This document shows, piece by piece, positions 32,975-54,110 of a stretch of 64,000 bases of DNA. The notes under the pieces were generated by a model that worked only from the letters and a program-made list of their open reading frames with translations, did no database searches and was not told the DNA's origin. The translations under genes and the position numbers were made by a program. This DNA is from Negaprion brevirostris (lineage: Eukaryota): contig JARDVH010000154.1 of assembly GCA_030324005.1 (NCBI GenBank), forward strand, positions 30,268,212-30,332,211, read 5' to 3'. The first letter of the stretch is position 1, and each line of letters begins with the position of its first letter.

Positions 32975-33530
32975 GGGTGGCTCGATGGCATAGTGATTAG
33001 CACTGTTGCTTCACCATGCCAGGAACCTGGGTTCGATTCCTGGCTTGAGTCACTGTCTGTGCAGAGTCTGCATGTTCTCCTGTGTCTGCATTGGTATCCC
33101 CCAGGTGCTCCGGTTTCTTTCCACAATCGGAAAGATGTGCTTGTTAGGTGCATTGGCTATGCTAAATTCTCCCTCAGTGTACCCGAAGAGGTCGTCAACA
33201 ACAACAACAACACACACAGCACGGGAAACAGGCCCTTCGGCCCAACGAGCCCGCGCCGCCGTCCCATTGTCTCAGTNNNNNNNNNNNNNNNNNNNNNNNN
33301 NNNNNNNNNNNNNNNNNNNNNNNNNNNNNNNNNNNNNNNNNNNNNNNNNNNNNNNNNNNNNNNNNNNNNNNNNNNNCACACCCCCACTACCCTTTGCGTG
33401 AAAAACTGCCCTCTAATATTTGTCTTATACCTAGCCCCCCTCACCCTAAGCTCATGTCCCCTCGTTCTATCCATTTCTAATAGCGGAAGTCTGCTGGCTA
33501 GGGATTTTCTCAGTAACTTCATTGTAGTGT
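32975..33530 (+). mobile_element. V-SINE (alternative-tail subfamily) with nested minus-strand CR1 3' end at ~33205-33480
   Basis: A/B-box head (gggttcgattcc), V core, tail resumes gctagggattttctcagtaacttcattg after the CR1 piece. Confidence 0.8.
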
Positions 33531-33599
33531 TATTGTTTTTAAACTGAATATTTATTTATACTGAAGTAAAATTTAGAATCAGAGCTTCTGGAAAAACTA

Positions 33600-33689
<90 letters not shown>

Positions 33690-33692
33690 CTA

Positions 33693-33782
<90 letters not shown>

Positions 33783-34879
33783 CTACGTAAGCCTACTTGT
33801 AACATTAACTAATCAACTTGCACACTGACATGTTATCAGTTTAAAGTTTATATATGTAAATGATATGTTGATTGGTATTCAAAAAAGGCAAAACAAAAAT
33901 GTATTTTTCATTGTTTGGTCCTCTTTCGGGTTTAGGGAATAGTTTAATATTGCTTGTTAAACTTTTGCTGAACTCTGAAATTTTACTCCAGCTTTCATAG
34001 TTGTAAATCACATTCTAAAATCAATATTGGTGATTGTTTATCTAATTTTCTCAGTGTGGTGTGTCGTGTTTTGTTTTGTCTGCCAGAAGTTTGCACTTAT
34101 TTTTCTGTCCGTATTTCATGCATCTACAACAGTGAGTGGCAGAAGAGCAACAAAGAAAATTAAAATTTGAGTATCTCCCTTTATTCACTTTTCCACCCCC
34201 CTCCAGTCACCCTAACACCAAAAGAATTAAAATGGCTGAACACCAGGAACATAAATGCTCACAGATGCAGCAATGTTAGATAATTCTGCATTATTTTGCT
34301 TGAGTTAGCAGGGTTAGTTAACATCTGATTGTATAGTTGTTAGAAAAAGCAACCACTTGCCTCTGCTCTCGATGCATTTTGATCTACATTATATCTGCAT
34401 GTCTATTTACACATGGATTTCTGTATATAACGCAACTAGTGCATTATTTTTTGTAACACTTTAGTTATTCTATTATAAATGCTAAATGGCCATTGAAAAA
34501 AATACAAATCAGAATTGAAGCTTGTAATCTACAAGTATTTTCCCGTACCAAGCAATAATCTGAAAATTTGTTCACTTAATGTTGCGATTTTGGTGCGTTG
34601 AACAATATAGTTTCATTTTCGCAGCAGCAGTATAATACACTGCATTGCACAATGCATCCATGCAGCCTTTATAAAACCTTGACACAATTTGTTGGAACAA
34701 TGCATCGTGGAGTGTGTCCTATTTTCAAGCTTTTTGCTTACCCTTCTCGAAAAAACCTTGTAGCTTGCACATTGATGGATGTGTGAGGCCAACAGTAAAA
34801 ATAACCAATGATACTAACAGTGTAGTTCCTTAATATGTGTGATTTAAGGATTAAAAAAGAGAAACTAATGAGAGAAGGA

Positions 34880-35420
34880 AATGGGGTGAATTCAGGTGTA
34901 AATTAGATACAAAAAGAAAAATTAAGAGAAATAGATTGGAAAAGAAAGATTAGATTGAGAGACAATGATGGAAAGGAAAAGTTTTTTTGATTTTTACAAT
35001 CCTAGGTACAATTTATTTCTGCAAGAATGAGACTCCACATTTTGTTACTCCCTTTTTGAACAGGGAAGTTGAATGGCATTGCAGGAACGTAAATCTCATT
35101 ATTAAAAGGACTCCTGCATTGTGGAATACCAGCCCTAACTTTTGTGTGGCATGCCTAATTTGTTTTAGCAGCACTAATGCCACAATTTTTGGAAGCACGG
35201 GCGTTTGATAACCTTGCAGGGACAGAAGGTTGCGAGTGGAACAGCAATAGTGATTCAGCAGTTTGTGAATCACATGGTATCTGCTCCTCATCACAAATTC
35301 CTGAGTTATTTGCACACACGTAAAAACAATAAAATAGTGCACACATTAAGCTTGCTGTTATTTTTCCCCAGCAAATTCAGAGAAAACCTGTACCACCTTA
35401 TGAGCAGAAGAAATGTTGTT
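34880..35420. repeat. Old interspersed repeat of unresolved class (related piece ~63480-63720)
   Basis: Shared ordered motifs (GA-rich run, aaaaagtttttt, gaatga.a..cca, aatctca). Confidence 0.3.
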
Positions 35421-35439
35421 TGGTTAATGATTTCCTGTC

Positions 35440-36110
35440 TACTTGAACCTATTTTCAACTCTGTTCTGTATCTGACTCCACATGAGCTTCCGACCATACG
35501 TGCGTGCCATTACAATTTCCAACACTTGTAACAGTGTCTGACTCTGTCCCTACCTCAACTTATTTGCTGCTGAAATCCTCATCATTTCTCTCTGATCTCT
35601 AGACTATTTGTCACATTTCTGGCCAGGCTTACATCTTCCATCATAACTTCATCTAAAACTCTGCTGCCAATTGTCGTAACTCAAAAGTACCATTCATATC
35701 TCTCCAATGCTCATAGAACCACATTGGCTTCTTGTTGACCAGTGCCTTGATTATAAAGTTCTTGTCCTTGTTATCAAATCACCCCACCCCTCCACAAACA
35801 TGACCTTACTCCTCCCTATCTGTGTAAGCTCCAACAGTTCCAGCCACTTGTCCCTGGTTTTAATTGCTCAATTATTGGCAGCCTTGCCTTAAGCTGCTGT
35901 GTCCCTGAGTTGTGGAATTTCATCCCTAACCCTCTTTACCTGTCTTTTCTCCTTTTAGGGCACTTCCTTAAAATGTATCTCTTTGATGAAACATTTGTTC
36001 ATCTGCCTTAATATACATCTATGTGACGCCGTGTCAGATATTGTGTGATATCACTTTTGTAAAATGCCTTGGGCTTAACTATTTTAAGGGAGCTACATAA
36101 AATATATACT
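35440..36110 (+). mobile_element. L2 LINE 3' fragment
   Basis: Degenerate A.E.L(I)...SRLDY, NSAA, HWL.V...DYKVL motifs and L2-type tail (gtaaaatgccttggg...gctacataaaat). Confidence 0.75.
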
Positions 36111-36474
36111 CGTAAATGTTGACCTCATGATTTTTGACCTAAGAAAGTGAAATTTTTCATATATCTCGCAACAGTCAATCTTAGTTTTGTCAGGGACCAT
36201 AGTCCAAAGATTTCACAATCAAAGGCTGTGTGGGTTTTGGAAGAGAAGCCTTTGCTTCATATGCTTGGGCTATGATTGGAAAGAGAAGTGAAACCAACTA
36301 TTATTTCTCAAAACAGGTAAAGATAGCCAAAAGGTAATCCTAGTTGACATAAAAATTACAAATATAATCACAATGATGGTTTTGTAGTTGAAATTATAAA
36401 TGGTGATGTGCTTTTTTATGATGGAGAGAAACATTGCACAATGCAAGAACAGGAAATGGATTCACTGACATAAA

Positions 36475-36790
36475 TAGAATTCCTCCAGTACAGAAGGAGG
36501 CCATTAGACCCCCTAAGTCTGTACTGACAATAATCCCATCCAAGCTGTCTCCTCATACCCCCACATATTTACCCTGCTAGTACCCCTGACACCAAGGGTC
36601 AATTTAGTATGGCTAATCAACCCAACCTGCACATCTTTGGCATGTGGGAGGAAACCAGAGCACCTGGAGGAAATCCACACAGACACAATGTGTAAACTCC
36701 AAGCGGACAGTCACCCAAGGCTGTAATTGAATTTGGGTCCCTGGTGCTGTGAGGCAGCAGTGCTAACAGCTGCATCACTGTCCTGCCCAC
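36475..36790 (-). mobile_element. HE1-type V-SINE
   Basis: Tail, V core and head as in 2297-2634. Confidence 0.9.
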
Positions 36791-37711
36791 ATCCTTCCTA
36801 ACCACTTGTGTCCATTCAATGTGGCCCAAATCAAGCATACATGTCAATTGCTCAAGCGTTACTGTGTAATTCTCTGTTTCATAAAAATAAAACAGCATTT
36901 ATAATCTCTGCTACTAACCTCTCATTGTAATGTTACTTGAAACTTTTATGATGAGTGATTTATCTTTTTGCTATCTTAACCCACATTGAGAAATATTGGT
37001 TGGTTTTACTCTGGGCTTTCCAATTGTAGCCCGAGCATTTTAAAAATTGGTTTCAAAAATTTGACTTTACGTGAGTACATAAGGAAATGCAAGCTGTTGT
37101 TGGAAGAGTCTGATTCTTAATTGTTATTTTGTTACAGGATTGTATCAAAAATATAATCACTATTCTCTCATCAATGAGAAAAAAATCCACTTAAAGTGAA
37201 AATTAGTGAAGCACTAATATCTGGTTCAAAGTCATCTGGGTCCCAAAATTCAAGAGTTCAATGATGTACTTTAATTGCCACAAGTATGCTCTTAGTACCT
37301 TGTGCTCAAAGAGTTGCAACTTTTCAGGAGCAGTTGCTGATGAAGAATCTGATTATGTATTTTTGTTTGGATTGATAATGTTTCCAGATTCTGTGGTGTT
37401 ATACTGTGAATCCTCTAAATAGAACACACAGAGGAAAAGTGTAATGAATAACAGTAGATGAAGAGCTGCGCTAGAGTTAAAGTGTACTTAAAAATAGGAG
37501 ATGAAAAGCTGCATTACTTCCCTAATACAGACAAAAAAATGGAAATAGAATTATGGGCAGGAAAATTAGTGCTAAGAATGGGTCATAATCCTGCCTTATC
37601 CCAAGCTGAAACTGTCCCTGTCTTCACTATTACCTTATACTGTCCTCTTTTGCTAAGCAACACTTGTTTCTTCACTATTCCCACCTAACAAATGGTATTT
37701 CTTTTTTACAG

Positions 37712-37756
37712 CATTTTGATCGCGGAGATGTTGTGGTGATGGTAAACTTAGCAGTG
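37712..37756 (+). other. Candidate poison cassette exon of GPATCH8 (30 or 45 nt)
   Basis: CTAAC branch point 37685-37689, pyrimidine tract + CAG, donors GTAAAC (37742) / GTAATT (37757); reads G|CA TTT TGA in the phase-1 frame. Confidence 0.6.
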
Positions 37757-39560
37757 GTAATTTTTTTTTCAGACTGAATTACTATCCCTCTTTGTCATCA
37801 GTGCACCAATATAAAAGGCTTATTTTCCTTCTCTGTTTAGCGTTCATTCTGCTGCTTGATATTCATTACCTTTTTTTCTTAGTAAAGTTATTTAAATTGC
37901 ATCTGTCCTGAGTGTTAATTGTTGTCCATTAGGAAGTAAATGCTGAGAAGAGACTGTTGTTTGTGTTTCTTAAAAATTCAAATCCAATCAATATCAACTT
38001 CTAGTATTGTCCAAGAGTTGATTTTACCCGTTTGTTGGGCACTTGCACTTGCTGCTGAAAATAAATACAAAACCATTCACGAGTGCTACTAATAATTGAG
38101 AAATATTATGTTAATCTGTACAGCAACCTAGTCTGAGCCCCTTCACAATGCACCCAAATACGTAATACAAGTCAATGACTTAAATAGCATACCATTTATT
38201 GTAGTATTTGTCTTGTACAGATTAAATATGCACCCAGTTGTCTAAAATGCTATTCTGTGAATTGGCTTGCACCTAAATCAGTAATTAAAAATGTGCTTAT
38301 AAATTGCTTGGCTAATCCTACAAATCAAATTATGTCATTTTGCTGTCTAGAAATTAGCATATATTTCTCTAAAATAGATGAGCATCTAAGGTAAGTAATC
38401 TGTTCTGTCACAGCTCAGCAAACTACTGCCGAGTGTATATTTCTGACTTAGATCTGTGGTAGTAAAGTGCTAGGCTGTCCCATTTGCTTTGTTTGGCTGG
38501 TTGAGTGGATAAAAGATTTGTACGACTCTTATATATAGTTGGATTAGTACTGTTGAAAGTTTAATTTTCTTTGCAAAAAGTCCTTTTCACAGCTTAGACC
38601 TTGTTTGGTCTAAAATTCAAAAGTATTTCAGTGATGGTGGGCAAATTGCTGTTACATTTATAAATTGACTACCATAGCTTATATTCATTTATAATAATGA
38701 ATTCTAATTTTTCGATCGCCGGGATAATACTGTCAGGTTTGACCATAAAAACCTGCATGTTGAGAAAGGTTTGTGCTTAGTACTTTCTAAGCCCAACCTT
38801 AACAGATGTTTATAAAGTAAAGCCTCTGGTAGTGGTTTTGGTACGAGCCAATTCCTAGATTTCTGTACATCCGATGTTTGGATTAAAAACTTCTTTTAAA
38901 ACTATTATATTAGATCTAACAAAATGTTAAAATATTTTGTACGCTCACTCTTCAACTTGATTGTTGAGTGGTGGCAAATAAAGCTCTCTTCCCTCTCCGG
39001 ATTCCCCTGGGAAAATTAAGCACTCTAGTATGGTTTGTTAAATTTCAGTTTAAAGGGTTGTTAATTACATTGATTCCAACCCTTTGAGACACAATTCAGC
39101 AAAGCCTGAATTTATTACTTGATATAGCCTCATGAAAAGAACAGAATTGTAGTGATTTACTGCTTCAATGATTTGTTCTATTTATACATTCATTTATGTC
39201 AACTTGTTCTGTAGAAAGCTACTCAATGTGGAACCACATGCATGGGCAGGCATGCACATATATGAATATGTACACCCACCCCAACTCGCCCATGTTGTAC
39301 AAAATCTTCGCAACTTCAGCTAATGACTACAATGTGTTTTTCTATTCGCCACCTCCGCACAAACCCCCCCCCCCCGCCCAAACCCCCTCCTACTGCCATC
39401 ATAAGAAACAAAAGGAACTTAATTATATCGTTTAAAAGATGTCAGGTTACAAAAAAAAGTAAATCCTTGGCTAATACATCAATAAATCCGTCCAAAAGGT
39501 AAATGCAAATGTTTTCTTTTCTGCCCTGTTCTTTTTGTACAAAGTTAAATCTAGCTGTAT

Positions 39561-39871
39561 ATTCGCTTCTCGGCCTTTTGGCTAAGACCAAGTGTAGTGT
39601 CAACATGCTGTGCTTGGTTGAAGTCATTAGATTACATTTCAGCTTCATTTGAAGCAATTTTTAAAAGTGGCATCTCGGCCTTTTGCCTAAGATGCAAATG
39701 AGATCAAGCCTTGGAGGAGGTGCCGTGCCTACTCCAATTAGTTTGGATCATGTAGATCAAGCCCAAGACAGGAGATCAGAATCCTGCCTTGTCAGCTTGG
39801 ATCGGGAATGTCTCAACTTGTTGAGACTCTGAATTGGACTTGATTTGATTGGAATAAAAACAAAAAAAAAA
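39561..39871 (+). mobile_element. U2 snRNA-headed SINE-like retroelement
   Basis: 39561-39598 matches U2 nt 1-37 (one insertion, one substitution); ~250-bp non-U2 body; AATAAA + A-tail; second 3' copy at 10109-10176. Confidence 0.8.
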
Positions 39872-40193
39872 GTTGTAGCATTTTAAATTGTTACTTTTAT
39901 GAAACATTAGCCCATTCTGTGCTTTTTTGACTTCTACTTTTAGTATGGTAAATGATGATGTGGTAAAATGGATTCTTCAATTGTTTCAATTTGAGTAAAA
40001 TAGTGATCAGTTTGCAGATATTGCATCTGCACAATATTAAATCTTCACTATATAAAACAAACCTGTGGTGAGTGCTGATAATATTCTAAGCTGTGAGAAT
40101 GGCTTCTGTTTGGTTCACTGTAGCTTTCTGGCCTCTGCACTCTAAGGCAAGATCTTTACCCACCAGACCCTCTGAGCGAATAATTATAATTGA

Positions 40194-40325
<132 letters not shown>

Positions 40326-40804
40326 TAACAGCAAACATTCTGCATCTTGGTTTCTGTGAGAACTTACTGATCAGTAATTTTAGCACTATACTGTATATTG
40401 ATATGATCAGCAGGACTGAGGAGAGAAATCGTGGGTCCAGACTCCTCTTCTGTTTCCAGGCCCCTTATTCCTCTCAGAAATCAAATGTAAGCCAGTCTTG
40501 TCTAGCTACATCTAAGCAAATGTTAGGAATTAGGAAGACGCGCACAGACACAAATACATTCGCTGGCTACATGGCCCCTCTCACAGCCTTTGGCCAAGCC
40601 ATCTTCCAATGGCTACTTAATCTCTGGAAGTAGTATCCACTTTGAGTGGATAATCTGTTAATTTAAAAAGATCTCTTGTTTAAAAAAAACTTAAGTTTTA
40701 CCCTTTGTCATTTTTAATGGGAGAAATGATGCTGGGAAGCTGATGGCTGTATCGGATACACACATCTCTCTCTTTCTCTCTCCCTCGCACGTGCGTGTGT
40801 GCAC

Positions 40805-41178
40805 GATGCAATTAAGGCAAATGGAATTTTGTCCTTCATTGTTAGAGGGATGGAGTTTAAAACAAGGAGATCATGTTGCAGCTATACAAGGTGCTGGTGA
40901 GGCCATACCTGGATCACTGTATACAGTTTTGGTCTCACTTGAGAAAGGATGTACTGGCACTGTAGGAGGTACAGAGAAGATTCACTAAGTTAATTCTGGA
41001 GTTGAGAGGGTTGACTTATGAGGAAAGACTGAGGCTAAACTCGCAGGAATTTAGAAGAATCTTGTATAAAAAAAATTATGAAGGGAATAGATCAGATAGA
41101 AGCAGGGNNNNNNNNNNCAGGGAGGTTGTGTCCGCTGGCAAATGAAACTAGAACAAGGGGGCATAGCCGCAAAATAAG
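40805..41178 (+). mobile_element. CR1 LINE fragment
   Basis: LQLYKVLVRPYLDHCIQFW motif. Confidence 0.85.
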
Positions 41179-45106: not shown

Positions 45107-45259
<153 letters not shown>

Positions 45260-53499: not shown

Positions 53500-54110
53500 G
53501 AAAATGGTACAGCAGAGGAGGAGCCAATTAATCTCACTATGCTTGTGTCAGCTCTGTGTTAGAGCTGTTCACATAGTCCCATTCACCTGTGCCTTCCACA
53601 TAGCCCTGCAAGGTTTCCCCTTCAGATATTTATCCCAAGTTCCTTTCCAAAATGGTTAGTCAACCTGCTTTCATTACCCTTTGCAGGTGCTGCAGGCCAG
53701 ATTTTCCAAACTCTCTGCATGAAAAAAATTCTTATCTTGTCTCTGGTCCTTTTGTCAATTGCTATAAATCTGACTCTTCTGGTTACTGACCCTTCTGCTA
53801 TTGGAAGCAGTTTCTCCTCCTTTATTCTAGCAAAACTCTTCATCAGTTTGAATCTATTATGTGTTCTTCATTTTTTTTTGCTCTAAGGAGAGCAGCTCCA
53901 AATTTTCAGACTCTTCACATAACTGATGTTGCATATCCTTGCTACATGTGAGGCTTATCTCCTGTCCATCAAGATACTTGCATCCTTCCTGAAGTGTTGT
54001 GCCTGGAATTGTACCAAAACATTACTCCTAACCAGTGATTATAAAAGGTGAGAACAGTTTCTTTGCTTTTGGATTCTATGTCTCTGCTTACAAAGGCAAG
54101 TATCTTTATC
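53500..54110 (-). mobile_element. Old CR1 3' fragment
   Basis: Minus ORF remnant EKLLPIAEGSVTR...FFMQRVW. Confidence 0.7.

Follow-up and report, generated by a model that had tools for sequence, protein, structure and literature searches.

A 45-nt candidate poison exon in shark GPATCH8, a likely ortholog of the mammalian GPATCH8 poison exon

The window analyzed here, a 64,000-nt stretch of the Negaprion brevirostris genome, contains a putative 45-nt exon with a stop codon within the G-patch of GPATCH8. This exon is likely the ortholog of the mammalian GPATCH8 poison exon, and its inclusion is predicted to lead to nonsense-mediated decay (NMD); we give this reading a probability of roughly 0.8. 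In human and mouse, both the exon and this reading of it are known already, and what is added here is a likely extension to cartilaginous fish. If the shark exon is a true ortholog, the switch dates to the jawed-vertebrate ancestor, which lived about 450 million years ago.

Host gene and exon map

A protein search with the open reading frame (ORF) at 40194-40325 pointed to GPATCH8 (102 of 102 candidates at E<=1, the majority named GPATCH8). When shark GPATCH8 proteins were used in tblastn searches, seven of the eight GPATCH8 coding exons (exons 1, 2, and 4-8) were found on the scaffold of the window, where they are collinear and span about 166 kb. The host gene is thus the GPATCH8 gene of a cartilaginous fish. 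The positions of the candidate exon and the neighboring coding exons are listed in Table 1.

The remaining coding exon, exon 3, is 73 nt long and was located on a different scaffold (C128, ~52143972-52144052, minus strand), with its splice sites intact and a 100-N gap close by. The search for this exon yielded one match at 93%, and the rest of the matches were weak (65% or less). The location of exon 3 on C128 is most likely an assembly misplacement. Because positions 33377-41107 of the window are free of gaps and do not contain exon 3, we place the candidate in GPATCH8 intron 3, with exon 3 itself on C128. The real exon 3 ends in phase 1 at the boundary CAG G|GT, which supplies the phase-1 G that the original prediction had assumed upstream of the candidate. 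A 251-nt stretch containing the candidate had one match genome-wide, and no second GPATCH8 copy was evident with either of the two queries used, exon 3 and the candidate DNA.

Table 1. Candidate poison exon, its splice signals, and the adjacent GPATCH8 coding exons (positions in the window)
Feature	Position	Strand	Basis or remarks
Putative branch point (A, position 37688), polypyrimidine tract, and acceptor AG	37685..37711	+	Sequence; acceptor score
Putative 45-nt poison cassette exon	37712..37756	+	Stop at 37717-37719; length and intron match human exon
Possible internal donor, 30-nt form	37742..37747	+	Weak, 1.1 bits; no outside support
Putative donor of 45-nt form	37757..37762	+	Weak, 1.4 bits; each of the five scored coding-exon donors is higher
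GPATCH8 coding exon 4	40237..40304	+	68 nt; second half of G-patch; contains Met79; tblastn
GPATCH8 coding exon 5	45107..45193	+	87 nt; tblastn

Splice signals of the candidate exon

The original prediction named a CTAAC branch point at 37685-37689, placed the acceptor at 37709-37711, and proposed two GT donors (37742 and 37757). All of these signals are present in the sequence: the branch point A is 23 nt upstream of the acceptor, and the two donors delimit exons of 30 and 45 nt. Thus, an acceptor, a branch point, and a donor are found together between coding exons, as expected of a poison exon, and the donors are weak.

To put numbers on these signals, splice sites were scored over a span that runs from exon 2 through exon 7 and has 115,565 non-N bases. 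Simple weight matrices were used, which were based on consensus frequencies and not on MaxEnt. The candidate acceptor scored 5.4 bits, compared to 2.9-7.8 bits for exons 4-7, and the candidate donors scored 1.1 and 1.4 bits, compared to 2.5-8.6 bits for exons 2 and 4-7. With the candidate's own scores as thresholds, which makes all of these counts post hoc, 90 of 3,155 AG sites matched or exceeded the acceptor, 405 and 337 of 6,796 GT sites reached the 1.1-bit and 1.4-bit donors, respectively, and acceptor-donor pairs formed 33 pseudo-exons in the gene; a pair alone was therefore not rare. When a CTAAC or CTGAC branch point was required as well, two pairs were left: the candidate and a pair at 53831-53947 in intron 5, which alone among the others combined a consensus branch point with scores at least as high as those of the candidate.

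The tetramer CGCG, to which the original prediction had drawn attention, occurred 19 times in the scored span, which corresponds to a post hoc chance of ~0.7% per 45 nt. In a search of sequencing runs with positions 37400-38100, 20 of 22 rows held part of the region and 7 held half or more; the holders listed included no RNA, and because the search had no neutral-intron control it was given no weight here.

The human and mouse counterpart

The tables of PMC7347940 give human GPATCH8 chr17:44438671-44438715 (hg38), which is 45 nt long, as an EI_NMD exon identified from RNA-seq junctions; a call required 3 or more junction read pairs and an inclusion of 3% or more in human RNA-seq. In the tables of PMC9882217, which were filtered for splice-site conservation between human and mouse, the same 45 nt are the sole poison exon of the intron 44436546-44464471, and the class attributed to Yan 2015 is NMD_in. 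The human and mouse exon and the shark candidate share the gene, the intron that follows the 73-nt exon 3, and the 45-nt length. The relative position is the same as well, with 2,125 nt between the exon and exon 4 in human and 2,480 nt in shark. As in human, the length is frame-neutral in shark, and hence an internal stop is needed.

How easily could such a match arise by chance? A GT is found at any given position with a frequency of 5.9% in this gene, so chance is an unlikely explanation for an exact length match at the acceptor that carries the branch point in the right intron. It is therefore very likely that the 45-nt form is the shark ortholog of the catalogued mammalian poison exon, an assignment based on gene, intron, length, and position and not on base alignment. 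Of the two exon lengths originally proposed, the 45-nt form gained support from the NMD-inclusion exon catalogued in the same human intron. The 30-nt form, whose extra donor is a possible difference from the human exon, did not; its donor scored 1.1 bits, no 30-nt exon was listed among the GPATCH8 rows of the catalogues, and this form was set aside as unsupported rather than disproved.

We also considered whether the candidate goes unspliced in sharks, either as a pseudo-exon that arose by chance or as a regulatory element confined to the intron, in which case the 45-nt match to human would be a coincidence. The weak donors fit this idea, as do the 33 comparable pairs that appear if the branch point is ignored; in addition, the two lengths offered at the outset doubled the chance of a match, and the shark exon is known here from genomic sequence. 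We nevertheless judge it improbable, since a consensus branch point accompanies just 2 such sites in the 115,565 bases, and the candidate matches the human exon in its intron, length, and position.

The 45-nt exon was present in two of the five catalogues searched. The two files of PMC8091538 had no GPATCH8 rows. In 12 of the 13 files of PMC11188260, the 45-nt exon was absent and the GPATCH8 events were exons of 18 and 35 nt and the skipping of exon 3; other mouse Gpatch8 exons are given there as responding to cycloheximide. The 45-nt exon was also absent from PMC10123112, which gives two GPATCH8 intron-2 exons. A full-text literature search found no paper with the exon coordinates, and a search for poison exons and elephant shark returned a sodium-channel paper only.

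A related report comes from mouse. As described in PMC6811834 (Chapman et al. 2019) and repeated in a review (PMC8652244), two ultraconserved poison exons flank the Gpatch8 G-patch exon, with RBFOX sites alongside. These exons, like the shark candidate, are stop-carrying cassette exons that adjoin a G-patch exon, and from this description one of the two should fall in the intron of the candidate, whichever exon numbering is used. In the case of the RBFOX sites, mouse and shark differ. The TGCATG motif nearest to the shark exon is at 38754, approximately 1 kb away, which is not above the background of 0.48 per kb. Thus, the RBFOX sites reported in mammals are not evident at the shark exon.

Reading frame and predicted fate of the transcript

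Inclusion of the exon introduces an in-frame stop at nt 6-8 of the exon (codon 67) in both the 30- and the 45-nt forms, in agreement with the original prediction, and the modeled product has 66 amino acids and ends in SLQAF. The Pfam G-patch domain covers residues 41-82, and the truncation at codon 67 thus falls inside the domain, which had also been proposed. The exon-junction rule of NMD, under which a stop located more than 50-55 nt before a later junction leads to decay, is established knowledge. For the 45-nt form, junctions are located 37, 105, 192, 336, and 467 nt 3' of the stop, and all but the first are beyond this distance.

Only 198 nt separate the stop from the AUG, and stops near the start can escape NMD. 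Four in-frame AUGs lie 78-99 nt past the stop. Four out-of-frame AUGs precede Met79 at 8, 19, 70, and 73 nt past the stop; two of them, at 37728 and 37739, are inside the 45-nt exon. The early stop and the in-frame AUGs would suit a switch between protein isoforms rather than decay. Specifically, the 66-codon frame would serve as an upstream ORF, and re-initiation at Met79 would yield a GPATCH8 that lacks the G-patch and is unable to engage DHX15. NCBI isoforms that start at Met79 in exon 4, often with several accessions, were found for 15 of 18 cartilaginous-fish species (based on ten protein clusters, nine with all members and the mammalian one with 15 listed of 262), and the one such isoform that was tested, P0129, lacks the G-patch. 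These models need a frame that is broken upstream, yet an exon in intron 2 or another 5' end would fit too; hence, they are indirect evidence and not specific to the candidate exon. Moreover, automatic annotation picks the longest ORF even when that ORF is not translated. These considerations, the out-of-frame AUGs that precede Met79, and the NMD-inducing class given to the human and mouse exon in the tables of PMC7347940 and PMC9882217 make an isoform switch very improbable.

Other candidate exons in GPATCH8

A second conserved intronic element was observed at 40089-40164, just 5' of exon 4. The Logan proteins P0001, P0002, P0004, and P0008 contain translated intron that matches this element (77-89% over 18-23 residues), whereas P0003, P0005, and P0006 do not. 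Within the element, positions 40124-40146 can be read as a microexon of 23 nt that is bounded by an AG acceptor and a GC donor (AAG|GCAAGA) and lies 90 nt upstream of exon 4. Heptamers like this donor occurred 4 times in the 115,565 bases. Inclusion of the microexon would shift the frame such that translation ends in exon 6, at codon 137. It was absent from the GPATCH8 rows of the catalogue tables.

Three further candidates were located outside the window. In intron 2, 241 nt past exon 2 and upstream of the window, a 22-nt AG-GT exon (L002:1041-1062) ends in the MHLK sequence with which many NCBI shark isoforms begin. Its inclusion would produce a stop at codon 47, and it is likely another frame-breaking exon; its length is unlike those of the human intron-2 exons, which are 18 and 35 nt. 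In intron 6, downstream of the window, a possible exon of ~47 nt with a weak donor was found at L017:893-939. The start of this sequence matched part of a human isoform insertion at 7 of 8 residues (E 0.018). The human 50-nt poison exon at chr17:44407217-44407266 may be its counterpart. In intron 5, just beyond the end of the window, an alternative exon at L012:739-849 encodes a MACCY... N-terminus; this N-terminus is found in NCBI isoforms of five shark and skate proteins, and the three tested were 84-95% identical to the sequence here.

A U2-like sequence in the window

Positions 39562-39760 contain a sequence derived from U2 snRNA (RF00004, 43.8 bits relative to a gathering score of 46, E 1.7e-7). 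Its 5' end is partly repeated, and an A-rich tail is found near 39860. The sequence has the look of a retroposed copy, or of a U2-headed repeat, rather than of a gene.

Discussion

Taken as an ortholog of the mammalian poison exon, the shark 45-nt exon suggests a simple mechanism. A consensus branch point combined with a weak donor would make it a cassette exon that is included in a minority of transcripts, the low inclusion being a consequence of the donor. Transcripts that include it would stop at codon 67 and be subject to decay by the exon-junction rule, and decay would leave less full-length GPATCH8 capable of binding DHX15. The four out-of-frame AUGs ahead of Met79 would limit re-initiation into a protein that lacks the G-patch.

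As for the regulator, our likeliest guess, made by analogy with other splicing factors, is feedback by GPATCH8 or its partners, to which we give somewhat less than even odds. According to bioRxiv 2026.06.30.735655, GPATCH8 is a splicing modulator that associates with DHX15, and the RNAs it binds undergo more exon skipping when it is lost. This description fits, but does not show, a loop in which inclusion of the poison exon is promoted by GPATCH8 itself; the strings 'autoregul', 'poison', and 'NMD' each had 0 occurrences in the text. The titles and abstract openings found in our literature searches, in which coverage of subscription papers was thin, claimed no demonstration of GPATCH8 autoregulation.

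A bolder idea, which we consider rather unlikely, is that GPATCH8 has been self-tuned since the jawed-vertebrate ancestor by small frame-breaking exons near its G-patch exons, with the 45-nt exon acting as a direct sensor of GPATCH8-DHX15 branch-site activity. The members of such a battery could be the 45-nt exon, the 22-nt intron-2 exon, and the uncatalogued 23-nt microexon with the GC donor, and the 45-nt exon could sense this activity through its consensus branch point and weak donor. If this idea is correct, an antisense oligonucleotide that forces inclusion of the 45-nt exon could lower GPATCH8. The wider relevance is modest and lies in the fact that GPATCH8 dosage modulates mis-splicing by mutant SF3B1: according to PMC12137872 (citing Benbarche 2024), GPATCH8 knockdown rescues about 30% of it. 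Comparison of the shark and human exons would also indicate which cis-elements are worth mutating to find the regulator.

Besides the human and mouse GPATCH8 exons, the closest known systems include the SR proteins, for which self-regulation is established or widely accepted. GPATCH8 differs from them in that no self-regulation was found in the literature searched. The two are alike in that, as in the SRSF AS-NMD loops (described in PMC6811834), a splicing-factor gene carries a conserved stop exon that is coupled to NMD.
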